A stretch of DNA of 64,000 bases, from assembly GCA_963422205.2 (NCBI GenBank), contig CAXMWX010000005.1:160001-224000 (forward strand). The letters run 5' to 3'. Source of the stretch: Gammaproteobacteria bacterium (GTDB lineage Bacteria > Pseudomonadota > Gammaproteobacteria > Eutrophobiales > Eutrophobiaceae). Below, one piece after another: positions 3,438-20,535 of this stretch; positions within the stretch are counted from its first letter, which is position 1; every line of letters starts with the position of its first letter. The notes beneath the pieces are model-generated. The model ran no database searches. It was not told the DNA's origin and was given only the letters and a program-made list of their open reading frames with translations. The position numbers and the translations under genes are program-made.

Positions 3438-4136
3438 ATGGCCGGTTTTGATAAATGCGTTGGCAGCTATGCGGCGGCCTTAGATGGCCTGGAAGATGGC
3501 ATGACCATCATCGCCGGTGGCTTTGGCTTGTGCGGCATACCGGAGGGCTGCATCGCACAGATAAAAAAAATGGGTTCCCGTGCGCTCACCATCGTTTCCA
3601 ATAACTGCGGGGTGGATGATTTCGGACTGGGGCTGTTGTTGCACGATAAGCAGATCAAAAAAATGATCTCCTCGTATGTGGGTGAGAATGCGCTGTTTGA
3701 AGAGCAGTTGTTAAACGGTGAGCTGGAAGTTGAATTGACGCCACAGGGCACTCTGGCGGAGAGGATGCGCGCAGGGGGTGCTGGCATTCCGGCATTCTAC
3801 ACCGCTACCGGTTACGCAACGCCAGTGGGTGAGAACAAGGAAGTCAGGGAATTCAACGGCAAGCCCTGTATTCTGGAGGAGGCCATCATGGGTGATTTTG
3901 CCATTGTTAAAGGCTGGAAGGCGGATCGCTATGGCAACGTCATCTACCGCCACACGGCGCAAAATTTTAACCCCATGGCAGCGACAGCCGGCAGGATCAC
4001 CGTTGTTGAAGTGGAGGAGATCGTCGAGCCAGGTGCATTGGAGCCTGCACAGATACACACACCGGGCATTTATGTGGATCGCTTGATCCAGGGCCGGTTT
4101 GAAAAACGCATCGAACAACGCACCACGGCGGGGTGA
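3438..4136 (+). CDS. scoA: 3-oxoacid (acetoacetate) CoA-transferase subunit A
   Basis: [45 protein letters not shown]. Confidence 0.93.
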
Positions 4137-4139
4137 ACC

Positions 4140-4799
4140 ATGGCGCTGACTCGTGAACAACTCGCCATGCGCGTGGCCCGGGAGTTGCGGGATGGCTACT
4201 ACGTCAATCTCGGCATCGGTATCCCGACACTGGTGGCCAATTATGTGCCGACAGGCATGGCGGTGATGCTGCAATCAGAAAACGGCTTGCTGGGCATGGG
4301 CGCTTTTCCCGCCGAGGCGGAACTCGATGCCGATATGATCAATGCTGGCAAGCAGACTGTGACGGCGATTACCGGTGCATCGATCTTCAATTCGGCCGAA
4401 TCCTTCGCCATGATACGTGGTGGGCATATCGATCTGACCGTGTTAGGGGCCTTTGAGGTGGACGTACAAGGCAATATCGCCTCCTGGATGATCCCGGGCA
4501 AGCTGATCAAAGGCATGGGCGGGGCCATGGATCTGGTCGCCGGTGCCAGCAATATTATTGTCACCATGACCCATGCCAGCAAGCAGGGCGAATCTAAGCT
4601 GCTGCCACAGTGTCGCCTGCCGCTCACTGGTGCCGCCTGCATTCATAAGGTGGTGACCGATCTGGCGTATGTGGAGATCAGGGACGGGAAATTCTGGCTA
4701 AAAGAGCGGGCGCCGGGCGTCAGTATTGATGAGATCGTGGCAAAGACCGCCGGTGAACTGGTGGTGCCGGCATCGGTGCCGGAGATGGAATTGGGTTAA
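4140..4799 (+). CDS. scoB: 3-oxoacid (acetoacetate) CoA-transferase subunit B
   Basis: VNLGIGIPT, catalytic SENG, GMGGAMDLV. Confidence 0.93.
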   Translation: MALTREQLAMRVARELRDGYYVNLGIGIPTLVANYVPTGMAVMLQSENGLLGMGAFPAEAELDADMINAGKQTVTAITGASIFNSAESFAMIRGGHIDLTVLGAFEVDVQGNIASWMIPGKLIKGMGGAMDLVAGASNIIVTMTHASKQGESKLLPQCRLPLTGAACIHKVVTDLAYVEIRDGKFWLKERAPGVSIDEIVAKTAGELVVPASVPEMELG

Positions 4800-4846: not shown

Positions 4847-5905
4847 CTATGCCGTCAGCACACCCCGGCGCAACTGATCCAGTTCAATCGATTCGAACAG
4901 TGCCTGGAAGTTGCCCTCACCAAACCCCGTATTGCCCTTGCGCTGAATGATCTCAAAGAAGATCGGGCCGATCACGGTCTCGGTGAAGATCTGCAATAAC
5001 ACACCCTGGCCCTCGGTTGGCGCACCATCAATTAGAAGGCTTCTTTGCAGCAACGCCTCCACATCCTCTTCATGCCCGGCAACACGGGTATTGATGTTCT
5101 CATAATAGGTAGCCGGTGTGTCCTGAAAAACGACATGGTTGGCACGCAAGGCATCCACGGAGGCATAAATATCATCGGTGCCGAGTGCGATATGCTGTAC
5201 GCCCTCGCCATTGTACTGCTGCAAGTATTCGGCAATCTGCGACTTATCATCGGCAGACTCATTGATGGGGATATGAATCTTCCCGCACGGGCTGGTCATG
5301 GCACGGCTTCTCAAACCGGTCATCTTGCCCTCGATATCAAAGTATTTCAGCTCACGAAAATTAAACAGCTTCTCATAAAAACCCGCCCACTCGTCCATGT
5401 TGCCACGGGCGACATTGTGAGTCAGATGATCCACATAGGTCAGGCCGGTTTGCCGCACCGCCGGGCTGGGCGCCACGGGTTCAAAGTCAACATCATAGAT
5501 CGTACTGGGACCGTAGCGATCAACCAGATACAAACGGCTGCCGCCGATTCCCTCTATCGCCGGGATGGCGAGTTCCATCGGCCCGATAACATCATTGACG
5601 CCGGTAGCACCCCTGGCGAGCGCATGTTCATACGCTGTACCTGCATCCCTCACCCTAAGAGCAAAAGCACAAATCGACGGGCCATGCTGCTCGGCAAACT
5701 GTTGTGCGAAACTGTCCGGTTCGGCATTGATGATAAAATTGATATCGCCCTGGGAATGCAGGCTGACGTTCTTGCGCCGATGCCTGGCGGTTACCGGAAA
5801 ACCCATTTTCTCAAACAGGTTACGCAATAATCCGGGGTCGGGGGCGGTATATTCGATGAATTCAAAGCCATCTGTGCCCATCGGGTTGGCATGTAAATCA
5901 GTCAT
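4847..5905 (-). CDS. hppD: 4-hydroxyphenylpyruvate dioxygenase
   Basis: NPMGTDGFEFIE, DHLTHNV, QHIAL, FFEIIQRKG..GFGEGNF. Start placed at ATG 5905 behind an AGGAG RBS. Confidence 0.96.
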   Translation of the reverse strand: MTDLHANPMGTDGFEFIEYTAPDPGLLRNLFEKMGFPVTARHRRKNVSLHSQGDINFIINAEPDSFAQQFAEQHGPSICAFALRVRDAGTAYEHALARGATGVNDVIGPMELAIPAIEGIGGSRLYLVDRYGPSTIYDVDFEPVAPSPAVRQTGLTYVDHLTHNVARGNMDEWAGFYEKLFNFRELKYFDIEGKMTGLRSRAMTSPCGKIHIPINESADDKSQIAEYLQQYNGEGVQHIALGTDDIYASVDALRANHVVFQDTPATYYENINTRVAGHEEDVEALLQRSLLIDGAPTEGQGVLLQIFTETVIGPIFFEIIQRKGNTGFGEGNFQALFESIELDQLRRGVLTA

Positions 5906-5968
5906 TGTGAGGCTCCTGTTGTTAGATTGTTGCAGCAGATTATACTGCCTGCTCTTGTCAACCCATAT

Positions 5969-5986
5969 TAGTTGCTTGTGCAACTA
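5969..5986. promoter_or_regulatory. Palindromic operator TAGTTGC-TTGT-GCAACTA, probable MarR site in the hppD/marR divergent promoter
   Basis: Perfect 7-bp inverted repeat, 18 bp in total, sharing consensus TAGTTRC-N4-GYAACTA with 2290-2307. Confidence 0.75.
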
Positions 5987-6459: not shown

Positions 6460-6689
6460 ACATCACGCACCACACACCGCCAGGGCATCCAGCCGCCGCC
6501 CGGCGATAACGGCAGTGATCCCAAAGGCAGATCATACCGATAGCCCTGCCTGATGGCAGCCCGCCCGTCCTCATCCAAGGGGGGCTTCTTTGTTCGGTGT
6601 ATTTGCGCTAATGTAGACCCCGGTATGGGTGAACCTGTAGCAATGCGGTGAACAAGACCAGGAAAAACGTCAGTGTCGTTGGCTCGGCC

Positions 6690-8345
6690 ATGAACACGGG
6701 CAGAAAAGCCCACAAGAGATATGCGTTCATCAAGCCTGCCGCCATCGCCCGCCATGAGACAGAACACTGCCCGGTGATTATCGTCGGGGCTGGCCCGGTC
6801 GGGCTGACCGCAGCAATCGATCTGGCCCGGTACGGTATCAACTCCATCGTGCTGGAAAAATACAATACCATCAGCGATGGTTCACGTGCTATCTGCTGGG
6901 CAAAGCGTACCCTGGAGATACTCGACCGCCTGGGCACGGGCGAGCGCATGCTGGAGAGGGGCGTGATCTGGAATACCGGAAAGATGTTTGCCGATGCAGA
7001 TCGAGAGCCGCTGTACAGCTTCGACCTGCTGGCCGATAAGGATCAGCAGTTCCCGGCTTTTATCAACCTGCAACAATACTACACGGAAGAGTATCTGATC
7101 GAACAGCTTGCCGAGTTAAGCCTTGGCGAGATACGCTGGCAGAACACCGTGCTTGCGATCGATAATCGAGCCGATGAGGTCATCATCACAGTCGACACGC
7201 CCGCCGGACAATATCAGCTTGCCTGTGATTATCTGATTGCCGCCGATGGGTGCCGCAGCCAGGTGCGTGATTGCCTGGGGCTGGATTTTGACGGACGTAT
7301 TTTTGAAGATAACTTTTTGATCGCCGATGTCAAAATCCATACCGATTTCCCGGCAGAGCGGCGTTTCTGGTTTAACCCGCCGTTTAATCCGGGGCAGACC
7401 TCGTTAATCCACAAGCAGGCAGACGATGTCTACCGGATTGATTTTCAGTTGGGCTGGGACATTGATAAACAAGCCGCCTTAAAAGAAGAAAATGTGACCA
7501 AAAAAGTCCGGGCATTTCTCGGGCCGGGGGTAGATTTTCAATATGAATGGGTCAGCCTCTACACCTTTGCCTGCCTGCGTATGGAAAAATTTGTCCATGA
7601 CCGGGTCATTTTTGCCGGCGATGCCGCCCACCTGGTCTCCCCCTTCGGCGCCCGTGGTGCCAATGGCGGTATTCAGGATGCCGACAATCTGATATGGAAA
7701 CTGGCCCTGGTGTTAAACGGCCTGGCCTCACAAGAGCTGCTTCAATCCTATGATGCCGAGCGCATTTACGGTGCGGATGAGAATATCATGAACTCGGCGC
7801 GCAGCACCGATTTCATGTCGCCCAAAGGGGAAGTCAGCCTGGCGTTTCGCAATGCCACCCTGGAGTTGGCACGGGATTTTGAGTTCGCCCGCCGCTTTGT
7901 CAACGGCGGGCGGCTGTCAGTGCCGTGCACTCTGGATGAGTCACCGCTCAATACAAAAGATGAGGACCGGTTCTCTGACAAGCAGCGCCCTGGCTCGCCC
8001 TGCATGGATGCACCGATCCGTGCCAACAATCAGGATAGCTGGTTGTTAAAGCGACTGGGAAATCGTTTTGTCGGTTTATATTTTACCGATGGAACAACGG
8101 CATCACCACGGCCAGAGGACATAGCCACAGCCGCCGCCATCCCCCCCATCCCCCTGGAGTTGCTCATCGTCAATCAACAGAACACCGGGGATGTATACGA
8201 TAAAAAGGGGCTGGCATTTCAACATTACGATGCAACCCCGGGCACCTTCTATCTTATCCGCCCGGATCAGCATGTGGCGGCACGCTGGCGGCAGTTTAAT
8301 GCGGATAAAGTCGCAGCGGCCTTGAGAGTGGCTACCGCCCAGTAA
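6690..8345 (+). CDS. FAD-dependent aromatic-ring monooxygenase (MhaA-like hydroxyphenylacetate hydroxylase candidate); start uncertain (6648 or 6690)
   Basis: IVGAGPVG Rossmann motif, ADG, GDAAH..PFGARGANGG, C-terminal YLIRPDQHVAARW domain; clustered with MBL-fold and DUF2783 genes. Confidence 0.85.
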   Translation: MNTGRKAHKRYAFIKPAAIARHETEHCPVIIVGAGPVGLTAAIDLARYGINSIVLEKYNTISDGSRAICWAKRTLEILDRLGTGERMLERGVIWNTGKMFADADREPLYSFDLLADKDQQFPAFINLQQYYTEEYLIEQLAELSLGEIRWQNTVLAIDNRADEVIITVDTPAGQYQLACDYLIAADGCRSQVRDCLGLDFDGRIFEDNFLIADVKIHTDFPAERRFWFNPPFNPGQTSLIHKQADDVYRIDFQLGWDIDKQAALKEENVTKKVRAFLGPGVDFQYEWVSLYTFACLRMEKFVHDRVIFAGDAAHLVSPFGARGANGGIQDADNLIWKLALVLNGLASQELLQSYDAERIYGADENIMNSARSTDFMSPKGEVSLAFRNATLELARDFEFARRFVNGGRLSVPCTLDESPLNTKDEDRFSDKQRPGSPCMDAPIRANNQDSWLLKRLGNRFVGLYFTDGTTASPRPEDIATAAAIPPIPLELLIVNQQNTGDVYDKKGLAFQHYDATPGTFYLIRPDQHVAARWRQFNADKVAAALRVATAQ

Positions 8346-8634
8346 GATCACCCCGTAAGGCATGGCGGAAAAACAGCGGTCAGCCCTTGATCATCGTCTG
8401 GCATGGCATCTGCTGGTTTTTATCTCACCCCGGCAGTTTTTCGGCGTATGATGATCCTCCCTGATCGCACGTATCCCACACATGCCGGGCAAAAATACTC
8501 CCTGATCTGCGGCCATCATGCCGCAAGATATCAGCGGCAAAATCAACCCGGTCCCCCTTACATAAGAACAGCTTTTGTGTCAATTTCATGGCAGAATTGA
8601 GGGCATACATGACAACATGATTGAGGTGCGACCA

Positions 8635-9594
8635 ATGGCGAAAAAATTTGCCTCCCAGGCAGATATGGAAGAGAAACAGGTGACGTTTTCACGGCTGGCG
8701 GAAAATGCCTATGCCTACACGGCCGAGGGCGATCCTAATACCGGCGTGATTATCGGCGATGAGGCCGTGATGGTGGTCGATACCCAGGCCACGCCAATGA
8801 TGGCCGGCCGGGTAATTGAGAAGATCCGTACAGTCACCGACAAGCCGGTCAACTATGTCCTGATGACCCACTATCATGCCGTGCGCGTGTTGGGCGCTTC
8901 CGCCTATGAGCCGCAGCATATCATCGCCAGCCAGGACACCTACGATTTGATCGTCGAACGGGGTGAGGCCGACTGGAAATCTGAGTTTGAGCGCTTCCCC
9001 CGTCTGTTCCAGGGCCATGAATCCATCCCCGGACTGACCTGGCCGAACATTGTATTCCAGGGCGAGATGACCTTATGGCTGGGCAAGACCGAGGTCAAGA
9101 TCATGCAAAAAGGCCGTGGTCACACCAAGGGCGATACGGTTGCCTGGCTGCCGAAAGAGCGCGTGTTGTACACTGGCGATCTGGTCGAATACGGCGCCAC
9201 GCCCTATACCGGCGATGCCTATCTGAAAGACTGGCCGGCCACGCTGGATAAGCTACTGGCACTTGATCCGGTCGCCATGGTGCCCGGACGTGGCGATGCA
9301 CTGACCACAGCAGAGACCATTGCGGCGGCGATTGGTGGCACCCGCAACTTCATCACCGCCATGTACCGCGCAGTTGAGGCCGGAAAAAAAGCCGGCAAGG
9401 ATTTGAACACCATCTATAAGGAAACCTATGCGGCACTAGAACCGGACTACGGCCACTGGGTGATCTTTGATCACTGCCTGCCGTTTGATGTCACCCGTGC
9501 TTATGACATCGCCGATGGCATTGAGGACCCGCGGATCTGGACGGCCGAGCGTGACGCCCAAATGTGGCAGGCACTGGAGGGCCAGCCCGGGTGA
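8635..9594 (+). CDS. Metallo-beta-lactamase-fold protein with degenerate metal motif
   Basis: AEGDPNTG, VVDT, THYHAVR (in place of HxHxDH), GHTKGD, TGD, PGRG. GAGGTG RBS before ATG 8635. Confidence 0.85.
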   Translation: MAKKFASQADMEEKQVTFSRLAENAYAYTAEGDPNTGVIIGDEAVMVVDTQATPMMAGRVIEKIRTVTDKPVNYVLMTHYHAVRVLGASAYEPQHIIASQDTYDLIVERGEADWKSEFERFPRLFQGHESIPGLTWPNIVFQGEMTLWLGKTEVKIMQKGRGHTKGDTVAWLPKERVLYTGDLVEYGATPYTGDAYLKDWPATLDKLLALDPVAMVPGRGDALTTAETIAAAIGGTRNFITAMYRAVEAGKKAGKDLNTIYKETYAALEPDYGHWVIFDHCLPFDVTRAYDIADGIEDPRIWTAERDAQMWQALEGQPG

Positions 9595-9788
9595 CCAGGC
9601 TGCGTACCTCGCCGGGCATAGCCGATGCGGATGATTTTTACGCCCGGCTGATGGAGCTGCATCGGGGGCTGACCCAGGAGCAGAGCAACAAGATCAACGC
9701 CAAGATCACTTTGCTGCTGGCCAACCATGTGGGGGATGCTGAGGTGTTGGATGAGGTGCTGGGGTATGTTAAGAACAGCCTGGGATAA
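9591..9788 (+). CDS. DUF2783-family small protein (MhaB-like coupling subunit candidate)
   Basis: DDFYxxLxxLHxGLxxEQS..INAK..LLLANHVGD signature. GTG start overlaps the MBL stop (GTGA). Confidence 0.85.
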   Translation: MTRLRTSPGIADADDFYARLMELHRGLTQEQSNKINAKITLLLANHVGDAEVLDEVLGYVKNSLG

Positions 9789-9928
9789 GAAGGCGTAGCA
9801 GACAAGCGTACTGCGCTGCGATGGATGTGCGCATCAGAACTTATACAAGCCGTCAACATCGTGGTATGAACGTACCAGGCCCCAGACAGCCGCCGCCAGT
9901 GGCTGTGCTTATCATCAGCCGCATCGTG

Positions 9929-10213
9929 TTATCTGCGTACGCCAGAAGCGCTGTTGCCGAAGATAAAACCGCTGGCGGTGCCGACAATGAGCGAAATCAG
10001 CCTGTTCGCCCACACCTGAAGTTCTTTGTTATCGTTAAAAAGGCGATGGCTGGAAACACCGCACCAATGCCCACTGCGGCAGCCCTGGTTTTCAAGCATT
10101 CGATCTCCATCGCGACCGCCGCAATAGCATCGGATGGCAGTGCGTGAGTGGATTGGATAGTCTCGGCCACCGCCCTGCTGCTTATTGATTGAGAATACCA
10201 ACCAACCCAGCAT
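9929..10213 (-). pseudogene. Possible decayed small membrane-protein gene
   Basis: Two hydrophobic segments (AAVGIGAVFPAIAFL and LISLIVGTASGFIFG) lie in different frames either side of a T-run near 10037-10041. No clear start or RBS. Confidence 0.25.
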
Positions 10214-10370
10214 CCAGCACCGCCGGGCCTGACGTGAAGCCGATGTGGGTTCTACCAGAGAGGCGCTGCGCTTGATAGACTTTCATGACCGATAGCGCGC
10301 AGCGAATGATCCCGGCTTTTCTCGTCCCCTCATCCCTGGCGATCATCGGTCAATGTATGTTATTCTCAAT

Positions 10371-10925
10371 TCAGGATGCTTCGGTGGCAATGCCGATGAT
10401 GATCGCCGTGGAGCAATGATAGACACTGCTCGCCGTGCCCAGACACCAGTTGGTATCGTTGTTGGAAAAGGCGCGGTAAGGCGGGATGTCGCCCTCGTTA
10501 TTATTGCACAGACAACGGCTGCAACTGGTCTTGGCACAGCAGTCGTTGTAGGAAATAATGTAATCTTTCCCATCAGCCGGATTCGTGCAGGTACCTATCC
10601 AGGTCATGGGCGACATCTCTGTGCCCGGGGGACAACTCCTGTGGCTGCCACCGCAACAGCTACACAAAAAACCATCGATAGCACAGTAACGCCAGTAATC
10701 ACAGGAGGCCGGATCGCCCGGATCACCGGCCTGACCCGAGGTCTGTGGCGCCACTCCGGGATACCCCGAACCACCCCCGCCATCTGCCGCCCTGGCCACC
10801 GGTAACAAGGGCACCGCCGCTCCACCCACCAGCAGGCTGCCGAGGCCGGTCAAGAAGCTGCGCCTTGAGGTCTTGCGTGCAACGTGGCGTGCTGTGATGA
10901 CAACCAAACGATCCAGCCATTGCAT
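10371..10925 (-). CDS. mauA: TTQ amine dehydrogenase small (beta) subunit, aromatic-amine-dehydrogenase-like
   Basis: Tat signal SRRSFL; CDYWRYCAIDGFLCSCCGG; TTQ-forming Trp residues in TWIGTC and NDTNWC; multiple conserved Cys. Confidence 0.95.
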   Translation of the reverse strand: MQWLDRLVVITARHVARKTSRRSFLTGLGSLLVGGAAVPLLPVARAADGGGGSGYPGVAPQTSGQAGDPGDPASCDYWRYCAIDGFLCSCCGGSHRSCPPGTEMSPMTWIGTCTNPADGKDYIISYNDCCAKTSCSRCLCNNNEGDIPPYRAFSNNDTNWCLGTASSVYHCSTAIIIGIATEAS

Positions 10926-10937
10926 GATTATTCGCTC

Positions 10938-11579
10938 CTAATGTGAATTGCCGGAAGCAGGGGCTTGCTGATCCGAATCGACCGCAACCGCACGATGAAT
11001 GTATTCCTGCAACGAAGCAACACCGCGCTCTTTCGATTCAAACAGACTTTCCAGATGCTCGCGCGAATTGATGATGCCCATGGAGGCAACCTTGCCCTGC
11101 TCATCAATCAATACCGCATAGGGCAGTTTCGATACGCCATAACTGCGCCCGAGTATCTCCGATGAAATATAGCTAAACCTGGCCAGATCATACCTGGCGA
11201 TATAGGATTCATGATCGTGATGATCACCATCACTGGCCAGGATGATCTCCAGCCATTGGTTTTCACTTTTATGCGCCGACTTGACCATCGGCAGCAAGGT
11301 CTTGCATACCGGGCAGGTGGGCGAGATGAAAAACACCAGTGTGCTTTTACCGTTTCTCGGCACACCACCTACGGTTATCAGCCTGCCATTAATATCCAGT
11401 AACTCCAGTTGTTTGATCGGCTGTCCCACTTTAAGGGTCTGATTCATCATCAGCGCACCGGCGGGCGCCACCCGCTCATACAACACGCCGATCTGCCTGA
11501 CCAGGGCGAAGATAACCACCGCCATCAGCAGCACGACTATCCACAGCAAAACAGTCGAGATGAGCAATGCCTCAGCCAT
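10938..11579 (-). CDS. mauD: Amine dehydrogenase maturation protein MauD (thioredoxin-like)
   Basis: N-terminal TM helix, RQIGVLYERVAPAGAL, CPVC, NSREHLESL. Confidence 0.95.
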   Translation of the reverse strand: MAEALLISTVLLWIVVLLMAVVIFALVRQIGVLYERVAPAGALMMNQTLKVGQPIKQLELLDINGRLITVGGVPRNGKSTLVFFISPTCPVCKTLLPMVKSAHKSENQWLEIILASDGDHHDHESYIARYDLARFSYISSEILGRSYGVSKLPYAVLIDEQGKVASMGIINSREHLESLFESKERGVASLQEYIHRAVAVDSDQQAPASGNSH

Positions 11580-12117
11580 GTTGCGGCCTCAATGTTTTTA
11601 ACAATCCCCGGTTCACCAGCAGTTGATTGACAATGTTATAAAACAAACCGCCCACAGCGGTTGCCAGCACAATCACCACCCAGTCAAACCAGAGCAAAGG
11701 ACGCGCCGGTGGCGGATGCAGAATGATCCAGGCAAACATGAACAAGACGGCATTACGCAGCACCAGCCAGGCGCTGATTGCCTGCCGTTGATCAGGGGCA
11801 CCACAACCGCAATCAATGCTATCTCTGCCACGTAACAAATTCACAACGATTGCCAGCATGTAGACCAGCAACAACAGCATGGCACTGACCGCAGCAAATG
11901 AGGAGACCATCGGGACTAACAAAGCAAGGCCAGTGCCTGATTCGAGCAGCGGCAATAACCCGGCTATTGCATTGGCTGATCGTTCGGGTAACACGCGGTA
12001 GCCTTTTACAGTCTCGGTAAACTCAAGGGGGTTTTGCCACTTGTGAAACGCCGCCACCACAAAGACATAGCTCAACAACAGTGACAGTGTGATGGTGATG
12101 ATGGGATCAAAAACCAC
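11572..12117 (-). CDS. mauE: Amine dehydrogenase maturation membrane protein MauE
   Basis: Multi-TM protein with NLLRGR..IDCGCG and RN motifs; lies between mauB and mauD. Confidence 0.93.
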   Translation of the reverse strand: MVFDPIITITLSLLLSYVFVVAAFHKWQNPLEFTETVKGYRVLPERSANAIAGLLPLLESGTGLALLVPMVSSFAAVSAMLLLLVYMLAIVVNLLRGRDSIDCGCGAPDQRQAISAWLVLRNAVLFMFAWIILHPPPARPLLWFDWVVIVLATAVGGLFYNIVNQLLVNRGLLKTLRPQHG

Positions 12118-12129
12118 GGCCAGGCCCGG

Positions 12130-13308
12130 TCAATGCGCCGCATGGAGGATGAAGGGCGTCTCAAAGGCGCGCCCGCCGATCGTGCGCTGCCACTGCCCCG
12201 ACTCAATGTGATACACATCCAGGTTCATATCGCCATTGGTGACGACCAGATAGGGATCATCGTGCCGGGTCGCCTGAATGGAAACGCCCCAGTGCTTTAA
12301 TGTGATCTTGTCGATGCGTTTGCCGGTGACTGCATCGTAAACCCACACCTCGCTGCCGCCGTTTTTATGGCTGCCGTCAAACCCATCTTGGTGCATCAAC
12401 ACGAACAGGCGCCCGCTGTCTTCATCGGCGGTGATGATCTGCCAGCCGCCCGGACGCCAGTTCTGCTGTTGCTCTGCTGGCCTGCTCAAGGCCCAGCCCG
12501 GGCCGATCACCGGCTCTTCCGTACGCATGTCCACCGTCTGAATCATGCCCTTGAACGAGGGGTAATAAGCAATGCCGTCAATCATGGCCGGTTTGGCAAA
12601 CAGAGGATCATCATCGGCATGAAAAAACGGCTTCGTCCTGGCCTGTTTTTTCACCTGGCCGTTTTTATCCAGCTGCGTCACCAGCATGGTGTTATCACTG
12701 CACAGGCTGCCAAAGCTCAACTTGCCGGAGGGGTAGATCATGGCACAACCCGCAATGGGGATATCGTTCAAGATGCGGCGCTGCTCAATGTCAATCACCA
12801 ACACGCTGGCCGCCGGCGTGAAATTAAACACCAGCAGCAGCCGTTCATCATCGAGAAACTGCAAGGTATTCTTGTGGGTGACAAACTGCCCGCGTTTGCC
12901 GCCCGGCAGAATAATCTCATCGATCGGCGTCAGGTTTTCCTTATCATAAATGGTCAGCAGGTCTGTGCGCTCACCCCGCACACGGCGGCTGTACACGGTC
13001 TCGGCGACATATAATTCAGGCCGCTTGCTCGAAGCCAGGAAGGAGGCAAACTGTCCGGCAGGCAGCGAGCCTTTGTAATTCCTGTTCTTTGCCGCCACAT
13101 CAACGATAACCACCTTGCCGTCCACCAGGGAGAAGAAATTGCTATCGTGTGCATACACCCAGGTGGCCGGATACACTGCCGGTAACTTCTCTACCACAGG
13201 GATAGGCTCTGCCGACAGTTCAGCACGTGCCAGCGGTGCGATCACCATGGCCGGTATCAGTACACCCGGTAGCAGTATATTCGGTAACAGGGCGCTCCAG
13301 CATCTCAT
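12130..13308 (-). CDS. mauB: TTQ amine dehydrogenase large (alpha) beta-propeller subunit
   Basis: Signal peptide, YSRRVRGERTD, FNFTPA, WRPGGWQ, GSHKNGGSEVW. AGGTG RBS before ATG 13308. Confidence 0.93.
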   Translation of the reverse strand: MRCWSALLPNILLPGVLIPAMVIAPLARAELSAEPIPVVEKLPAVYPATWVYAHDSNFFSLVDGKVVIVDVAAKNRNYKGSLPAGQFASFLASSKRPELYVAETVYSRRVRGERTDLLTIYDKENLTPIDEIILPGGKRGQFVTHKNTLQFLDDERLLLVFNFTPAASVLVIDIEQRRILNDIPIAGCAMIYPSGKLSFGSLCSDNTMLVTQLDKNGQVKKQARTKPFFHADDDPLFAKPAMIDGIAYYPSFKGMIQTVDMRTEEPVIGPGWALSRPAEQQQNWRPGGWQIITADEDSGRLFVLMHQDGFDGSHKNGGSEVWVYDAVTGKRIDKITLKHWGVSIQATRHDDPYLVVTNGDMNLDVYHIESGQWQRTIGGRAFETPFILHAAH

Positions 13309-13385
13309 CTGCTTACACCTGCATGTATATTGGCAGCCATATGACCTGCCGCGCTGGCCCGCTCGTTCAATCACGCTTTCAAGGC

Positions 13386-15626
13386 TTAAAAACTGTAGGA
13401 AATACTGCCGCCTATCCATCGTGGCAGGCCGTAGTATTGCTCGGTCATGCCCAGCACGGTGGCCAGATCAAAGGTCTGCACCAGATACTCCTCATCAAAC
13501 AGGTTATTGACAAAGATGGCCGCTTCCCATTTTTGATCGGCGGTGGTGTAACTGACGCGGGAATTGACCACGGCATAGCCATTCTCGGTCACGGCCTGGG
13601 CCTGGGTTAAGCTGAAAAAATGCTCGGAGCGATAATGAACATCGCCCTGGATGGCGATGGCAGCACCGCCCGGCACCGACCACTCATAGCGCACCAGGCC
13701 ATTGAGGTTCCATTTCGGTGATTGTACCGGTTTGGTATCGCGCACACCGAGGCCAATCTGCAAGTCCACCGGCAGGTCGATATCCACATAGCCCACGCCG
13801 AACAGCAAGTCTAGGCCATCGGTTGGCGAGGCCTGTAATTCCACTTCAAAGCCATGATTTTTGGCATCGGCATTGAAGATAAACGTGGACAGACCGACGA
13901 TGCGAAAGGCCTGGAAATCCTGGTAGTCGTAATAAAACGCCGAGGCATTTAAGCGCGCCAGCCCGCCGGCCAGGGTGGACTTAAAGCCGATCTCATAGGC
14001 ATCGAGCTTCTCCTCATCAAAGCGCATCAGGGCATCATCCAGCGTAAGACCGGTAATATCCAACGGTGCATTAAAACCGCCGCCTTTAACACCGCGGTTC
14101 CAACTGGCGTAGACCAGGAGATCATCGGTTGGCCGCCAGTCCAGCTCCACCCGGGCCGACCACAGCCCACGATCCAGCTTGCCGTCATAGCGACCGCTCT
14201 CCGCAATAATATTCGGGTTACCGTTACGCTGGCGCATACCGGGTTCAAAATCCACAAAATTGCTGACATAGCTGTGGGTCTTCTCTTCCTCTATCCAGCG
14301 AAAGCCGGCGATGGCGGTGAACTGCTCCGTCAAGTCATATTCCACCTGCCCGAACACCGACCAGCTTTTGGTGTCCGTGGTGTACGGATTATCCGAGCCC
14401 TGAAAAGAACCATCGCTATCGACCAAGGGGCCGGGAACCCCAAGGGCGACGGCAACGCCCGGACCACTCAAGGGCTGCTCGGCGCCGTTGGCATCATTAA
14501 CATCGATGTCGAGATAGTAAAACCCCGCCACCCAGCGCATGACATCCGTCTCGCCATTGACGCGCAACTCCTGCGAGAACTGCCCGGCATCGGTATTTAG
14601 GAAAAAATTGAAATCGGCAAACGGCGAGGCGTCCGAGTCCTCAAGGTAGTCCCGTTTAATGTGCTGATAGTCGGTAATGGAGGTCAGTTGCATGCCATCG
14701 GCCAGATTCCATTTAAGCGTGCCGGATACGCCGTAGGATTCCATGTCCTGAAAACCAAACCGGTCATAGTCACCAGCGAACACATCGCCGTCCGCATCGC
14801 GGTAGCCGTTGATATTAGCCAGGTTGGGTGTCAGCTCGCCCAGCCCATCCCCATCCAGATCACGCGATGAGACGTTCTCGAACGGGCCGCCGGTGCGAAT
14901 ATTCTGCAAGGCGCCGCGCACATTGACCAGCAGCTCCAAATCGTCAGTCGGGCTGAACAGTAACTGCAAACGCGCCGCATAGTCATCGGCGTTATTAATG
15001 TCATCACCCAGCACGCGGTTTTCAATGTAGCCATCGTTATGGTGGGTGGCAACGGATAAACGGGCGGCCAGCGTATCACCGAGACCACCGCCCACGGCGC
15101 CCTGGAACTTCACCTGATTATAAGAGCCCAGCGTGACCTGGCCGTAGCCGTCAAATTCCTGGGTCGGCTTGCGGGTGACATAATGCGCCAGTCCGCCGGT
15201 GGCGTTGCGCCCGAACAGGGTGCCCTGCGGGCCGCGCAATAACTCAACACGCTCCATGTCAAACAGCAGAAAACCCGCCCCCGACATCTGGCTGACATAG
15301 ACCTCATCCACATAGATGGACACCGGGCTTTCCTGGTTGCTGATAAAATCATTCTGCGCCACGCCGCGAATGGCGAGAGCATAATTGGACGGCCCATTAG
15401 GCTGAATCGTGCTGACCCCAGGCGCCAGGGCGGATAACTCCTGGGCATTGGTGTAGCCCAGCGCCCGTAATTGCTCGCCGGAGAAAGCAGTGACTGAAAT
15501 ACCCACATCCTGCAAATTCTGCTCACGCTTCTGGGCAGTGACCACCACCTCTTCGAGCACGATTCGTGCATTAGCCACATGGAACAGGCCGAGACAGGCC
15601 AAAGCGAGACCGATTTTCTTCATCAT
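13386..15626 (-). CDS. TonB-dependent outer-membrane receptor
   Basis: Signal peptide, TonB-box region EEVVVTAQKREQ, plug motif VELLRGPQGTLFGRNATGG, terminal aromatic YSF. Confidence 0.96.
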   Translation of the reverse strand: MMKKIGLALACLGLFHVANARIVLEEVVVTAQKREQNLQDVGISVTAFSGEQLRALGYTNAQELSALAPGVSTIQPNGPSNYALAIRGVAQNDFISNQESPVSIYVDEVYVSQMSGAGFLLFDMERVELLRGPQGTLFGRNATGGLAHYVTRKPTQEFDGYGQVTLGSYNQVKFQGAVGGGLGDTLAARLSVATHHNDGYIENRVLGDDINNADDYAARLQLLFSPTDDLELLVNVRGALQNIRTGGPFENVSSRDLDGDGLGELTPNLANINGYRDADGDVFAGDYDRFGFQDMESYGVSGTLKWNLADGMQLTSITDYQHIKRDYLEDSDASPFADFNFFLNTDAGQFSQELRVNGETDVMRWVAGFYYLDIDVNDANGAEQPLSGPGVAVALGVPGPLVDSDGSFQGSDNPYTTDTKSWSVFGQVEYDLTEQFTAIAGFRWIEEEKTHSYVSNFVDFEPGMRQRNGNPNIIAESGRYDGKLDRGLWSARVELDWRPTDDLLVYASWNRGVKGGGFNAPLDITGLTLDDALMRFDEEKLDAYEIGFKSTLAGGLARLNASAFYYDYQDFQAFRIVGLSTFIFNADAKNHGFEVELQASPTDGLDLLFGVGYVDIDLPVDLQIGLGVRDTKPVQSPKWNLNGLVRYEWSVPGGAAIAIQGDVHYRSEHFFSLTQAQAVTENGYAVVNSRVSYTTADQKWEAAIFVNNLFDEEYLVQTFDLATVLGMTEQYYGLPRWIGGSISYSF

Positions 15627-15872
15627 TGTTATACTCCCCCAAGAATGATTGATACAAGGACTTAACGGACGCTGGCGCGTTCATGCAAATTTAACCCAAA
15701 CCATCCGCTGTATGTGTCCAAGCACTTTAGGACAAGCGCCCAAATATAGCACATAAAAATCAGGGGTAAAGAGGAAATCAGCCCTGGTTACAACATTGTT
15801 GGTATATGGCAACAGCAGCGGGCGAACTCCTCATCCCATGACCAAAGCCGTTGATTTGGTTAAGATGACCCC

Positions 15873-16550
15873 GTGGTCTTACGCACTCGAAAAGCCTTAA
15901 ATCGCCCCGGCACCGCCACCCAGGAAAAGGGCTTATCTCGCCTTGTGAATATCCTGGATGCAGCACATGCGGTGTTCACGACCGAGGGCTATGCCAACCT
16001 GTCCATGCGTAAGGTGGCAAAACAGGCGGAGATCTCCATTGGTAATCTGAACTATTACTACCGCACCAAGGAGGACTTGCTGCGCGATCTGGCCGACTAT
16101 TTTGTCACGCCTTATATCGAAGAGTTTGATCGCGCCCGACAGCAGGCCGGGGAGTCACCGGAGCGGCAGCTAAGAGCCGTGCTTGATTTTTGGGTGGCGG
16201 ACTTGAGCACACCGGAGACCACCGCCTTCTTCCCGGAATTGTGGGCGCTCAGTAATCATAACCCGTACATCGCCGAACTGCTGGATGAGGTGTATATCGC
16301 CGCCAGGGAGTCCTTAAACGAGCTGGTGCCACAGATCAACGGCAGCCTGTCAAAGACCGAGGCCGAGCAAGTGTGTTTGTGCATGTGTGCAGCGATGGAG
16401 GGGCTGACGATCTTTGTTGGTCACGAGAAACCTTGGTACCCGCAACGGGATGCTATCCGCCGGCTCACCGTCGACTCGCTGATGAACATGGCAAAGCATA
16501 CCATTGGCAAAAAAAACACGCGCAAGGCGCGAGCTGATTGCCACCGGTAA
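15873..16550 (+). CDS. TetR/AcrR-family transcriptional regulator
   Basis: ILDAA..F...GY..LSMRKVA..A.IS.GNLNYYYRTKEDL helix-turn-helix; divergent from the receptor/mau operon. Confidence 0.92.
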   Translation: MVLRTRKALNRPGTATQEKGLSRLVNILDAAHAVFTTEGYANLSMRKVAKQAEISIGNLNYYYRTKEDLLRDLADYFVTPYIEEFDRARQQAGESPERQLRAVLDFWVADLSTPETTAFFPELWALSNHNPYIAELLDEVYIAARESLNELVPQINGSLSKTEAEQVCLCMCAAMEGLTIFVGHEKPWYPQRDAIRRLTVDSLMNMAKHTIGKKNTRKARADCHR

Positions 16551-16902
16551 ACCGGCCAGATAAACCAGCAGCCTACCCCTCCATCGTGCCAGAAAAAACA
16601 CCATGCCGGGCGAATAGCTGTACGGCGGCGAACTCAACCGCCGACCCCCAAAGCGATGCGTCAGTGCAGGGTGTCATGTGTGTCAGCATCGCTTCAATCT
16701 GCGGCCAGGGGTTGGGATCAGGCACAACGCAAGAGGTCAGAATCAACCGGTGATTTCACCCGCCAGACGCTGAAACCGCCCGCAGCCTGCCACCTCCTCC
16801 GCAGCCGTCCCGGCAGAGCGTCCACTTGTCACCCTGGCGGCATTTGTTAAAATTCAGGCACGATCCGTATTCCGGGCGAGACCATCCATAGCAGGCGTCA
16901 TC

Positions 16903-18288
16903 TTGCAATCCGAATCAGCCACCCAACGCACCGTACTTCTCATCGTCTGCCTGGGGGCGTTCATATCGCCCCTGATGCTCTCTGCGGTCAACGTGGCTAT
17001 TCCGGGGATTGCACAGGACTTCGGGGCAACCGCCACCGCCATCAGCTGGATACCGCTGGCCTATCTACTGAGCAGCGCCGTGTTCATGTTACCGGCGGGG
17101 CGCATTGCCGATGGCTACGGGCGCAAGCGCATCTACCAGACCGGCATGATCGTCATCACCGTGGCCTCCTCGCTGGCGGCACTGAGCGAGTCCATCGGCT
17201 GGCTGCTGTTTTGCCGGGCCTTGCAGGGCCTGGGGGCGGCCATGTTATTCGCCACCGGCCAGGCCATGCTGGCCTCGGTCTTCCCACCGGCCAAACGTGG
17301 CCGTGCCATCGGCCTGTCCGTCTCCGCCGTGTATCTGGGGCTGACCGCCGGGCCGGCACTGGGTGGCTGGGCGATAGCGGCTTACGGCTGGCGCGCCAGC
17401 CTGCTCATCCACCTGCCGTTGGCCCTGCTGGTCATCGGCATCACGCGGCTGAAATTAACCGGCGACTGGCGGGGTGATGAGAGCAGAAAGCTCGATCTGA
17501 CCGGCAGCCTGATCTATGGCGGGGCGCTGGTTATCAGCATGTACGGCTTATCTTCACTGCCCGGGGCAACAGGCATTGCCTGCATCATTCTCGGCTGTGT
17601 CGGCTTTATTGTGTTCTTTCGTTATGCCCGCCGGCGTGCTGATCCCATCTTTGATGTCAGCCTGTTTCGCACCAACCGGCTGTTTACTTTTTCCTGCCTT
17701 GCCGCCCTGGCGATCTATGCAGCAACCTTCAGCATTTCCTATCTGATGAGCCTATACCTGCAATACATCAAAGGGCTGGCAGCCGACAGCGCCGGCATCA
17801 TCATGATCGGCCAGCCCTTAATCATGACCTTATTATCGCCAGTGGCAGGCAGACTGTCAGACAAATATGAAGCCTGGGTGCTGGCCTCATCGGGCGTTGG
17901 GCTTGTCTGTGTCGGGCTGGGCCTGCTGGCAAGCCTGACGGCAGACAGCGCTGTGATGACGGTTTTTATCTACCTGATGCTGACCGGGATGGGTTTCGCC
18001 CTGTTCAGCGCACCGAATATGAATGCCATCATGAGTTCGGTCAACAAGCGCCATTTAGGGCTTGCCGCCGGCTCTGTCAGCACCATGCGTGTACTCGGGC
18101 AAATGATCAGCATGGCGATAGTCACCGTGGTATTTGCTTTGCTGGTGGGGCCTGTTGAGGTGGTCTTGCTCGATCATGACCTGCTGATGCACAGCATTCG
18201 CATGAGCTTCGTGGCCGCTGCCTGCCTTGCGGCCACGGCCATCCCCTTATCGCTGAAGCGGGGCAACATGCGCCTTGATGCAGGTTGA
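16903..18288 (+). CDS. MFS transporter, DHA2 (EmrB/QacA-like, ~14 TM)
   Basis: VNVAIP, GRIADGYGRKR motif A, GPALGG motif C, GRLSDKY; many hydrophobic helices. Confidence 0.9.
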   Translation: MQSESATQRTVLLIVCLGAFISPLMLSAVNVAIPGIAQDFGATATAISWIPLAYLLSSAVFMLPAGRIADGYGRKRIYQTGMIVITVASSLAALSESIGWLLFCRALQGLGAAMLFATGQAMLASVFPPAKRGRAIGLSVSAVYLGLTAGPALGGWAIAAYGWRASLLIHLPLALLVIGITRLKLTGDWRGDESRKLDLTGSLIYGGALVISMYGLSSLPGATGIACIILGCVGFIVFFRYARRRADPIFDVSLFRTNRLFTFSCLAALAIYAATFSISYLMSLYLQYIKGLAADSAGIIMIGQPLIMTLLSPVAGRLSDKYEAWVLASSGVGLVCVGLGLLASLTADSAVMTVFIYLMLTGMGFALFSAPNMNAIMSSVNKRHLGLAAGSVSTMRVLGQMISMAIVTVVFALLVGPVEVVLLDHDLLMHSIRMSFVAAACLAATAIPLSLKRGNMRLDAG

Positions 18289-18321: not shown

Positions 18322-19182
18322 TTACGGGCGTTTGCCGTAACGCCAGCGGGTGGCGAAGGTAAACACCCGCTCATCACACACATCAATACACCGCCCGCAG
18401 TTGGTGCAGTCACCACTTAAGATCAATGGGCTGGCCTGCTCGTTGGCCGGTTTCAATGCCGGGGCGATCACCTGGGGTTCAGGGCAGTGCGTAAAGCAAT
18501 CCCCACAGTCAGTGCATGCCTGCCTGTCAGCGGCTTTAATGCGGATCAGGGAGACCTTGCCCAGCACGCCATAGAACACGCCCACCGGGCAGAGATGCCC
18601 ACACCAGGCACGGCGGCTGACAAAGACATCCAGCAGAAATACCGCCAGCATGATCACCCAGGCCATGCCCATGCCGAAGACCAGCCCTCGTTGTAACAGG
18701 GTGATCGGGTTGACTATCTCCCAGGCAATCGTTGTGGTCAGGGCAGAGACGATCAGCACCATGATAAACAGCCAGTTGCGGCTGGATTTTTTCAGTGGCA
18801 GGCTGGCGCTGATCCCCAGTTGGGTACGCAACCAATAGGCCAGATCCGTGACGATGTTGATCGGACACACCCAGGAGCAATATGCCCGGCCGCCCAGCAG
18901 CAGGTAGATGATGACGACATTCAGCGCACCCATGCTCGCAAGCGTGCCCATCTTGTGGCCGGCGGCAATCGATTGCAGGTAGATATACGGATCAGTCAAG
19001 GGCAGGACAGAGAACACCGTACTGGAGGCAAGATTCCCTTTGAGGATCCACAGCCCATAGAGCGGCCCGGCAAGAAACAGGCCCAGCAATGTCAACTGCG
19101 AGGTGCGCCTTAGCAGCCACCATGTATGCCGGCTGAACCAGGAACGCCTGCTCGTTACAGACATGACGGCTTGCTGTCCCAT
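18322..19182 (-). CDS. napH: NapH/MauN-family membrane polyferredoxin (quinol dehydrogenase subunit)
   Basis: LRRTSQ, GRAYCSWVCP, WCGHLCP, two CxxCxxCxxxC ferredoxin motifs. Confidence 0.9.
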   Translation of the reverse strand: MGQQAVMSVTSRRSWFSRHTWWLLRRTSQLTLLGLFLAGPLYGLWILKGNLASSTVFSVLPLTDPYIYLQSIAAGHKMGTLASMGALNVVIIYLLLGGRAYCSWVCPINIVTDLAYWLRTQLGISASLPLKKSSRNWLFIMVLIVSALTTTIAWEIVNPITLLQRGLVFGMGMAWVIMLAVFLLDVFVSRRAWCGHLCPVGVFYGVLGKVSLIRIKAADRQACTDCGDCFTHCPEPQVIAPALKPANEQASPLILSGDCTNCGRCIDVCDERVFTFATRWRYGKRP

Positions 19183-19186
19183 GGCG

Positions 19187-19843
19187 TTAGCGGTCCTGCT
19201 TCGCCAGCACCGTTGGTAACACCTTGATGGACGCCTGCTCTGTCACGCACGCTTTCTCACACTTGCCGCAGCCGGTGCAATGGGCGGCATGGACTGTCGG
19301 CTCAAAATAGGTGCGGCGGCCGGTGCGTTTTTGCTCCATCGTGATCGCCTCGCCTTGCAGCGGACAGGCCAGATAACAGGCACGGCAATGGGCGGCGCCC
19401 GTGATGCTGTAGCAGGTATCCAAACCCGTCATCACCGCCACCCCCATGCTCGCCTGCCCGACATCATCAAGCTCCTTGCTCAAGGCATCGGTCGGGCAGG
19501 CGGCGGTACAGGGAATATCCTCGCACATCTCACAGGGCACCTGGCGGGCGATGAAATACGGCGAGCCAGTCGCCACGTCCTCGGCAAATGTGGCCAGGCG
19601 CAAGGTATCAAACGGGCAAGCACGCACACACAGGCCGCAACGCACACAGGCAGCCAAAAAGTCCTCATCATCAATGGCACCGGGCGGGCGCAGCGCCCAA
19701 GCCGGGGTCGAGACAGACTGCGCTGAATAGGCGCCAAGCAAGAGGCCGATGAGGCTGAAACCGCCCGCCGTTTGCAGGCACTGCCCGACAAACTGCCGCC
19801 GACTCAGGTAATGTGCGTGATCTGGATTCGCTGTATCGGCCAT
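19187..19843 (-). CDS. napG: NapG/MauM-family periplasmic 4Fe-4S ferredoxin
   Basis: Tat motif SRRQF, LRPPGA, CVRCGLCVRACP, PCEMCEDIPC, CTGCGKCEKAC. Confidence 0.9.
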   Translation of the reverse strand: MADTANPDHAHYLSRRQFVGQCLQTAGGFSLIGLLLGAYSAQSVSTPAWALRPPGAIDDEDFLAACVRCGLCVRACPFDTLRLATFAEDVATGSPYFIARQVPCEMCEDIPCTAACPTDALSKELDDVGQASMGVAVMTGLDTCYSITGAAHCRACYLACPLQGEAITMEQKRTGRRTYFEPTVHAAHCTGCGKCEKACVTEQASIKVLPTVLAKQDR

Positions 19844-19879
19844 ACCGCCCTCGTTAGCTTGCTACCCCCCCCCCAGGTA

Positions 19880-19908
19880 ACAATAGTACAGCCGTCCTAT
19901 TTATTCAA
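19880..19908 (-). promoter_or_regulatory. Candidate sigma70 promoter for napG-napH
   Basis: TTGAAT-N17-TATTGT on the minus strand, ~37 nt upstream of the napG start. Confidence 0.45.
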
Positions 19909-19954
19909 GCAGCAAGAGGAGGCCGGCACAACCACCTCAGCGGTTAGCAGCTAA

Positions 19955-20314
19955 TCAGCAACTTCTTATGCAGGCATTCTCTATCTCACGGCAATCGTAT
20001 CGACAAGATACGCTACCACCCCGGCAAGACAGATCACAGGTCTTCTTTTCTTTCAAACAACGATACTCACATCTTTTACGCTTTTTTTCTGATCTTTCAG
20101 CGAGAATTGCTCGCTTTATCCTGAGCACATCGCTTGGATAAACTGCAAACAGCAAGTCATTGTCGCTTGATTGCCCCGAGGCAAAGGGGTTGGACGCATC
20201 ACACAAGACCAGGGGGGCTGACTCACCAGCGATGGGTATCGCCTCATCGGCGATTGTGGCGGTGTTGGATAGGGTAGTAGCGACAAGGGATAACAGGCAG
20301 ATAAGGTGTTTCAT
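19955..20314 (-). CDS. Small secreted cysteine-rich protein (119 aa) with four CX3C motifs
   Basis: AGGAG RBS, then MKHLICLLSLVA signal-like N-terminus. C-terminus is KKRKR-CEYRC-X6-CDLSC-X6-CRYDC-X6-CIRSC-stop. Confidence 0.75.
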   Translation of the reverse strand: MKHLICLLSLVATTLSNTATIADEAIPIAGESAPLVLCDASNPFASGQSSDNDLLFAVYPSDVLRIKRAILAERSEKKRKRCEYRCLKEKKTCDLSCRGGSVSCRYDCREIENACIRSC

Positions 20315-20535
20315 ATTTTCAGTCTCCTGTGTTATTAGATGACACCCGACACGCAGCAGGGTGTCGGGCATTTCAACATGCGCTAACACAGGAAAGCACA
20401 CCCTACTTATTTCCGGGTGGTCTTGTATTCGTAGGATACCCGACCGGGGGGCTCCTGTGTTAAACGCAAGACACAGATTTCTGTTGAAGGAAACCTGTAT
20501 GCAGGGCATACTACACACGCAACATTAAAATGCAA
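20315..20535 (-). promoter_or_regulatory. Structured 5' leader and candidate promoter of the Cys-rich gene
   Basis: TTGCAT-N16-TAGTAT (20535-20508). RBS-containing 11-mer TAACACAGGAG occurs twice (20462-20452, 20334-20324) with its complement TCCTGTGTTA (20393-20384) between them. Hairpin CCCGACAC/GTGTCGGG at 20345-20368. Confidence 0.5.

Follow-up and report, generated by a model that had tools for sequence, protein, structure and literature searches.

What does a TonB-dependent receptor (TBDR) do at the head of an operon that encodes a periplasmic amine dehydrogenase? The question is raised by a 64,000-nucleotide stretch of a gammaproteobacterial contig (GenBank CAXMWX010000005.1, positions 160,001–224,000; hereafter, the window), taken from a 2.99 Mb genome assembly in 14 contigs that is 98% complete. 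Five co-oriented minus-strand genes occupy 10371–15626 of the window, and a gene for a TetR-family regulator diverges from them across 246 nt. We consider it probable that this locus is a TetR-controlled operon for the catabolic uptake and oxidation of a primary amine. The enzyme is of the aromatic amine dehydrogenase (AADH) type, which carries a tryptophan tryptophylquinone (TTQ) cofactor, and the locus comprises the following features.

15873–16550, plus strand: TetR-family regulator with a BetI-type C-terminal domain (PF00440, 1.5e-13; PF13977, 2.5e-7)
15715–15734, no strand: imperfect palindrome TGTCC-N10-GGACA in the divergent promoter region, candidate TetR operator
13386–15626, minus strand: TBDR, 746 aa (PF07715 Plug, 2.1e-15; PF00593 barrel, 5.3e-34)
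12130–13308, minus strand, within the open reading frame (ORF) 12130–13419: MauB-like large (alpha) subunit of an AADH-type TTQ amine dehydrogenase (PF06433, 1.3e-42)
11572–12117, minus strand: MauE-type membrane protein with a CGC motif, DsbB-like and disulfide-generating (PF07291, 7.9e-26)
10938–11579, minus strand: MauD-type membrane-anchored thioredoxin-like protein with a CPVC motif (TIGR02661, 5.4e-53, 179.3 bits against a cut-off of 188.6)
10371–10925, minus strand: MauA small (beta) subunit precursor (PF02975, 5e-50)

In the mechanism that we propose, the TBDR, powered by TonB/ExbBD, would import a primary amine through the outer membrane; the likeliest cargo is an aromatic (aralkyl) amine such as tyramine, dopamine or phenylethylamine. 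A periplasmic AADH-type α2β2 TTQ dehydrogenase would then convert the amine to an aldehyde and ammonium. MauE and MauD, through their CGC and CPVC motifs, would make the many disulfides of the Cys-rich small subunit, and TTQ would be completed without MauG, as across the AADH branch. Electrons would probably exit via a small monohaem cytochrome c, which the host genome encodes only at a second locus, 37 kb away. The aldehyde would proceed to hydroxyphenylacetate and on into the homogentisate and homoprotocatechuate pathways, whose genes lie next to the operon.

The gene layout is compatible with a single transcript. The receptor gene and the mauB ORF share 34 nt; because a signal peptide begins at Met38 and an AGGTG ribosome-binding site lies 9 nt before the Met38 ATG, mauB probably starts there, at nt 13308. 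With this start, the gaps along receptor, mauB, mauE, mauD and mauA are 77, 12, −8 and 12 nt, in agreement with an earlier description of the locus from its letters and ORFs (hereafter, the sequence-only reading), which had pointed to co-orientation, gaps under 80 bp and a divergent TetR gene. The 77-nt receptor–mauB junction holds no hairpin and folds no better than shuffled sequence (z = +1.64), and a terminator and promoter scan gave counts no higher than in shuffles. The junction is therefore compatible with read-through, though no proof of it, and we infer co-transcription from this arrangement.

The receptor itself has a signal peptide, a TonB-box-like EEVVVTAQKR, a plug, a 22-strand-type barrel and a C-terminal Phe, and no N-terminal signaling domain was found in it. 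Solved receptors match it weakly and over the plug only. Its tie to the dehydrogenase genes was examined in 80 related loci anchored on MauA (L002–L081). A TBDR lies in the examined flank of 62 of them, and 39 of these receptors are at least 45% identical to that of the window, in several different arrangements. Receptor genes stand upstream and co-oriented (13 loci), divergent, or downstream after cytochromes. Paralogues in the host genome, which holds at least 18 TBDR homologues, reach at most 37.5% identity. Sixteen of the 80 loci, mostly from sphingomonads, have a non-orthologous TBDR (<35% identity) downstream of mauA and co-oriented with it, and in 7 of the 18 TBDR-less loci the flank is shorter than 3 kb to one or both sides of mauA. 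The public annotation of Novosphingobium aromaticivorans plasmid pNL2 gives the order TBDR–cytochrome c–mauBEDA, with a divergent amidase gene and adjoining catechol pathway genes.

The two proteins also share a phyletic pattern. In the family of the window, 24 genomes were compared, which are kin rather than independent samples: MauA and the receptor occur together in 7, MauA alone in 1, the receptor alone in 1 and neither in 15; the genome with MauA alone is the one with a methylamine dehydrogenase (MADH)-type enzyme. Anchoring on the receptor instead gave 40 places within that family. The 9 whose receptors reach 57% identity or more all adjoin mauB/mauA, as do 2 more distant ones, while 11 have a class-III aminotransferase (omega-aminotransferase) gene nearby and no mau genes, often with an aldehyde dehydrogenase or acyl-CoA synthetase gene. 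At the aminotransferase-type loci, a protein of ~670 aa without a Pfam family is encoded directly beside the receptor (L099, 6802–8820, minus strand); its homologues (36–58% identity) are found at L113–L118, L124, L127, L128, L130, L135 and L140. At another place (L134, 10244–13029), genes for a Rieske LigXa-like oxygenase and a glutamine-synthetase-like protein come after a distant receptor homologue (36%), a pairing that recalls, by analogy, gamma-glutamylation pathways for aromatic amines.

A class-wide sample of 200 other genomes contained a strong receptor homologue in 2, neither of which encodes MauA; with these matches at 45% and 41% identity, a threshold of at least 45% identity for Mau-linked receptors was rejected. 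One of the two lies in a quinohemoprotein amine dehydrogenase (QHNDH) operon (L098, G058:C12:17000–34321, 7668–17320), in which a TetR gene diverges from the order TBDR–QhpA–radical-SAM protein (QhpD-like)–431-aa ORF–ABC exporter. Four QhpA domains are present, the receptor is 45% identical to that of the window, and the TetR proteins share 37% identity over 181 aa. The other match shows the order aminotransferase, aldehyde dehydrogenase, receptor. A homologous TetR–receptor pairing thus precedes two unrelated dehydrogenase types, one with TTQ (many loci) and one with cysteine tryptophylquinone (CTQ), the QHNDH type (a single locus), although the receptor of the QHNDH locus sits in a different clade of the receptor subfamily. 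In a FastTree phylogeny, the window receptor falls in a clade of 48 rows (support 99–100) that are all Mau-linked, a count biased by the 37 members collected through MauA and comprising many close kin.

Our literature search brought up no paper that ties an AADH- or MADH-type enzyme to a TonB-dependent receptor; the two were co-mentioned only in a reference list or table. The receptor–TetR front end is a conserved variant, undescribed in the literature searched. The sequence-only reading had proposed an energized importer that feeds an amine to a TTQ enzyme, an idea to which this front end lends support. Its tie between receptor and operon gains comparative support from the 62 loci, the shared phyletic pattern and the 48-member clade; the amine as ligand keeps the standing of a proposal.

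The enzyme was assigned from several comparisons. Against solved structures, MauA scores 165.2 bits with the beta subunit of Alcaligenes faecalis AADH and ~121 bits with mature MADH light chains; one MADH entry reaches 160 bits because it includes the conserved leader. MauB scores 163.5 bits with AADH alpha and 124 bits with the MADH heavy chain. Both subunits miss the cut-offs of the MADH (amicyanin) equivalog models TIGR02659 and TIGR02658, with 170.5 versus 196.85 for the small subunit and 154.9 versus 454.45 for the large one. MauA carries a twin-arginine leader (SRRSFL), and its TTQ pair W109 and W160, D128 and 14 Cys have aligned counterparts in A. faecalis AADH beta and are invariant in 18 relatives. 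The motifs WIGTC, GKDYIISY and NDTNWC, from which the sequence-only reading had placed MauA nearer to AADH than to MADH, were all found, and the bit scores and phylogeny agree with that placement. In a MauA tree of 101 core sequences, which includes both copies from the host genome and from which A. faecalis AADH itself is absent, a long branch (SH-aLRT 100) separates two MADH references, from clusters with mauF, amicyanin, mauJ, mauG and mauMN, from the 99 other rows. A plasmid-borne Pseudomonas aeruginosa ‘aauA’ was rejected as a nearer stand-in for A. faecalis AADH, being no closer at 165.7 bits versus the window's 165.2. The window MauA falls in a large group, mostly from marine bacteria and sphingomonads, whose members are 60–88% identical to it. 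Judged by these sequence comparisons, the enzyme is no MADH but belongs to the AADH branch as one of its ordinary members. The order aauB-aauE-aauD-aauA of the A. faecalis-type layout is present as well. A 2026 preprint (10.64898/2026.03.05.709764) reports that MauE is able to take the place of DsbB and has a CXC active site.

Searches with Paracoccus denitrificans proteins (tblastn) found no mauG, mauF, mauJ or amicyanin gene in the window or the genome, except for one MauG-family gene on contig C9 (L001, C9:46461–49910, 532–2508), the sole CCP_MauG-family gene of the genome. Its product is a 658-aa fusion of SCO1/SenC with a di-haem domain, encoded directly after an SBP56 (methanethiol-oxidase-like) gene; among solved structures, an MbnH-like di-haem enzyme comes closest to it. 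Besides two CXXCH motifs (CAMCH and CIHCH), the protein shows 30% identity to P. denitrificans MauG and keeps a Tyr aligned with that of the MauG FYN motif, which we take to be a haem ligand; His replaces the inter-haem Trp of MauG FWDGR. Frames close to the C9 protein in length (644–682 aa) and with the same domain occur in the relatives G212, G218, G221 and G017.

With the C9 protein as query, no di-haem gene was found within 9 kb at any of the 80 related loci. Five of nine other MauA-positive relatives, at 96, 85, 93, 98 and 96% completeness, gave no PF03150 match at all, and no CCP_MauG gene was found in the genome holding L061. Only one relative, G224, has a MauG-like gene near mauA; its cluster is a canonical MADH-type mauF-B-E-D-A with mauJ, and it has no receptor homologue. 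To our knowledge, the A. faecalis aau cluster is without mauF, mauG and amicyanin, too. Because the di-haem gene is missing from the 80 loci and from five of the nine relatives, MauG-lessness is a trait of the AADH branch; the absence of mauG, mauF and amicyanin is the norm in AADH-type clusters and hence ordinary here. The sequence-only reading was right that no canonical mauG is present, but the novelty that it saw in MauG-less maturation does not hold.

At 72 of the 80 related loci, a gene for a small monohaem cytochrome c directly follows mauA. Across 72 sequences of this cytochrome, namely the host genome's copy and 71 homologues from L002–L081, CQGCH is invariant, and no Met, His or Tyr is invariant as a possible sixth ligand; a Met is present in 48, and the host genome's copy has Leu in its place. 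That copy (C7:132953–133324; L082 6950–7330, minus strand) lies at a second AADH-type locus, outside the window and 37 kb from the operon (L082, C7:126001–146000, 6950–15721). There, a GntR gene diverges from the order TBDR–amidase–amidohydrolase_3–mauB2–mauA2–monohaem cytochrome c; the TBDR, mauB2 and mauA2 products are 29%, 42% and 63% identical to those of the window, and neither mauE nor mauD is present. The arrangement hints at uptake of an amide conjugate that is hydrolyzed before oxidation. The two loci are complementary in the host genome, with MauE and MauD encoded only in the window and the small cytochrome c only at the second locus. Many relatives have a pair of AADH-type subunit genes with mauE/mauD and, adjoining it, a second pair that lacks them (L004, L005, L014, L022, L033, L037, L038, L056–L059, L072 and L079); in the host genome, these two units are the ones separated by 37 kb. 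Azurin or amicyanin was rejected as the acceptor: the genome's only cupredoxin (PF00127) match (C3:481643–481807, in L097, C3:480143–483307) is weak and short with two in-frame TGA codons, and is probably a remnant.

Regulation by iron left no sign in the promoter region, where the best Fur-box match was 10/19, at or below the mode (11) of 500 shuffles. The palindrome at 15715–15734 was found by a looser script, the exact inverted-repeat finder having given nothing in the promoter region. Palindromes containing GTCCTA occupy the equivalent place in the seven closest intergenic regions between divergent TetR and TBDR genes (L002, L003, L021, L006, L007, L008 and L010) and are missing from four more distant ones (L016, L018, L020 and L025). 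A TetR homologue is encoded at 52 of the 80 related loci. The conserved palindrome is a candidate operator and would fit control by TetR.

Which amine the operon might serve is suggested by its surroundings in the window.

894–2240, minus strand: HmgA (Pfam)
2344–3339, plus strand: fumarylacetoacetase (Pfam)
3438–4799, plus strand: CoA-transferase A/B (Pfam)
4847–5983, minus strand: HPPD (Pfam)
6648–8345, plus strand: MhaA-like FAD monooxygenase, 565 aa (NF006002, 772.6 bits)
8575–9594, plus strand: MBL-fold protein
9564–9788, plus strand: DUF2783 small protein, 74 aa (PF10932, 7e-23)

The MhaA-like, MBL-fold and DUF2783 genes (6648–9788) are a candidate hydroxyphenylacetate hydroxylase system yielding homogentisate; MBL-fold and FAD-monooxygenase genes also adjoin the operon at L012 and L070. 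Located 6–15 kb before the window (L093, C7:145001–160400) are HpaE, HpaG and HpaH genes, all above equivalog cut-offs, together with HpaI-like, isomerase and LigB-type dioxygenase genes, a homoprotocatechuate meta-cleavage set. The same region, between the two AADH-type loci, encodes a pyridoxal-phosphate-dependent decarboxylase, an aldehyde:ferredoxin oxidoreductase, an AMP-ligase and a glutathione S-transferase. The operon sits within an island of roughly 50 kb with homogentisate and homoprotocatechuate pathways, which points to hydroxylated, tyramine- or dopamine-like aralkylamines as its substrates.

Two further features lie beyond the TetR gene, and the connection of either to the amine operon is uncertain.

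16903–18288, plus strand: DHA2-family major facilitator superfamily (MFS) transporter, downstream of TetR (PF07690, 5.2e-62; TIGR00711, 207.6 bits)
18322–19843, minus strand: NapH/NapG-type ferredoxin pair, MauM/MauN-like (57% and 45% identical to P. denitrificans MauN and MauM, respectively)

Among the 80 related loci, the order MFS–TetR with a divergent TBDR is common only to the window, L002, L003 and L021. The MauM/MauN-like genes had been overlooked by the sequence-only reading. As a nitrate reductase component the pair was rejected, with no NapA above cut-off in the genome, and as a conserved operon partner likewise, with a similar pair within 9 kb at only 2 of the 80 related loci. A 187-aa ORF with a Cys-rich C-terminus and no Pfam family comes before the pair (the three spanning 18322–20518, minus strand).

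Several observations weigh against the proposed uptake and oxidation of an aralkylamine. Small amines might pass through porins without a TBDR, and AADH-type clusters on Pseudomonas and Cupriavidus plasmids do without one. Eighteen of the 40 receptor-anchored homologues (35–44% identity) occupy contexts unrelated to amines, namely FecR/sigma genes with sulfotransferases, 2-oxoacid dehydrogenase genes, a xanthine-dehydrogenase-like enzyme and others; the wider receptor subfamily is thus not amine-specific, and the notion that all of it is amine-linked was rejected. The Mau-linked receptor clade and the MauA tree carry the sampling bias and the missing A. faecalis reference given above. After mauA, the window holds no CXXCH ORF in 9788–10371. 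Homogentisate-related neighbors occur at only ~5 of the 80 related loci, where the commonest extra neighbors are genes for acyl-CoA synthetase (39) and aldehyde dehydrogenase (27), which would suit aliphatic or arylalkyl acids no less than aromatic ones. With these as the commonest neighbors, the receptor/dehydrogenase clade may handle various hydrophobic amines.

These counts bear directly on a variant in which the same machinery serves a primary amine that is hydrophobic and aliphatic or otherwise non-phenolic (a long-chain alkylamine or benzylamine, for instance) and whose acid product would become a CoA ester. We regard this as unlikely for the window. The synthetase at the 39 loci is of the AMP-binding type, some loci add acyl-CoA dehydrogenase, hydratase and thiolase genes, sister receptor clades adjoin aminotransferase, aldehyde dehydrogenase and acyl-CoA genes, and A. 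faecalis AADH oxidizes long-chain aliphatic amines, too. In the host genome, however, no synthetase or aldehyde dehydrogenase gene lies within 9 kb of the operon, and its flanks are homogentisate and homoprotocatechuate genes. Quite unlikely, in our estimate, is the import of a larger conjugate (an N-acylated or peptide-linked amine, or a catecholamine–metal complex) from which the amine would be released in the periplasm and then oxidized. No hydrolase gene belongs to the window operon, and clade-wide the receptor's only partners are dehydrogenase genes, TetR and cytochromes; the amidase and amidohydrolase genes of the second AADH-type locus and the divergent amidase gene on pNL2 nevertheless speak for it, as does the fact that TBDR cargoes are usually too large for porins.

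Maturation of TTQ in trans by the C9 protein, which would make the process distal rather than MauG-independent, is given little credence. Its two CXXCH motifs, the Tyr aligned with that of FYN and its identity to MauG favor such a role; its MbnH-like closest solved relative, the SCO1 fusion and position after SBP56, the His in place of the inter-haem Trp, and the complete lack of a CCP_MauG gene in five of nine MauA-positive relatives and in the L061 genome oppose it. Finally, the receptor could be an unrelated neighbor, for a siderophore or other nutrient, that merely shares a promoter region with the dehydrogenase genes. This explanation is disfavored and, to our minds, extremely improbable: TBDRs abound in the host genome and the best NCBIfam match of this one is a siderophore-receptor subfamily model (TIGR01783), but its score of 148.3 falls short of the cut-off of 223.5, no Fur box was found in the promoter region, and the linkage is kept through rearrangements at 62 of the 80 loci, with a phyletic pattern shared with MauA and a TBDR clade that is exclusively Mau-linked.

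Uptake and oxidation of a primary amine, most likely an aralkylamine, is the reading that we retain for the window. Beyond this locus, we tentatively suggest that the receptor clade comprises TonB-dependent transporters specialized for primary amines, which would enrich the periplasm in scarce aromatic or hydrophobic amines for use by quinoprotein dehydrogenases; the clade would build TTQ without a MauG-family enzyme, possibly using a small cytochrome c that lacks an invariant Met ligand. For many marine and soil bacteria, TonB-dependent transporters are the principal entry points for nutrients taken up with high affinity, and the cargoes known so far comprise iron chelates, cobalamin, sugars and a few aromatics. 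If the suggestion is true, amines would be a new substrate class, the receptor may be a so far undescribed route of amine uptake, and the scavenging of very dilute biogenic amines for carbon and nitrogen would be easier to explain. The genome-wide evidence for TTQ formation by AADH-type enzymes in the absence of every MauG-family protein is extended by this locus as well. Cultured carriers include Halioxenophilus aromaticivorans (strain KU68F), Paraglaciecola (P. marina) and Pseudoteredinibacter isoporae, which have a receptor of this clade, as well as Sphingosinicella microcystinivorans and, on pNL2, N. aromaticivorans.

Set beside known systems, the operon shares its B-E-D-A order with the A. 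faecalis aau cluster (aauB-aauE-aauD-aauA-orf2; PDB 2AGL, 2H3X and others), whose AADH is the best solved-structure match for both window subunits, with TTQ tryptophans, catalytic Asp and 14 Cys in common. Unlike that cluster, it begins with a TBDR gene, faces a divergent TetR gene, has no cytochrome c gene after mauA and lies near MauM/MauN-like genes. The P. denitrificans cluster mauRFBEDACJGMN, found also in Methylobacterium, has homologous B, E, D and A proteins (28–41% identity to those of the window) together with mauF, amicyanin, mauJ and mauG, which the window lacks. The 565-aa flavoprotein and the small DUF2783 protein are similar in size and type to MhaA (566 aa) and MhaB (60 aa), which are described as a hydroxylase converting 3-hydroxyphenylacetate to homogentisate (3-hydroxyphenylacetate 6-hydroxylase; PMC3053370).

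The receptor resembles TonB-dependent transporters for non-iron nutrients, such as carbohydrate receptors, in having a plug and barrel and no FecA-type signaling domain, and in sitting in a substrate-specific catabolic operon with a local repressor and no Fur box. A Sphingobium TBDR for a lignin-derived aromatic compound is another such non-iron example. Unlike in these systems, the enzymes linked to the window TBDR are periplasmic amine dehydrogenases. The island as a whole parallels the tyramine/dopamine catabolon of Pseudomonas putida U, in which amine oxidation is likewise combined with hydroxyphenylacetate, homoprotocatechuate and homogentisate pathways; it differs in that the amine-oxidizing step would be carried out by a periplasmic TTQ dehydrogenase that, as we propose, is fed by a TBDR.

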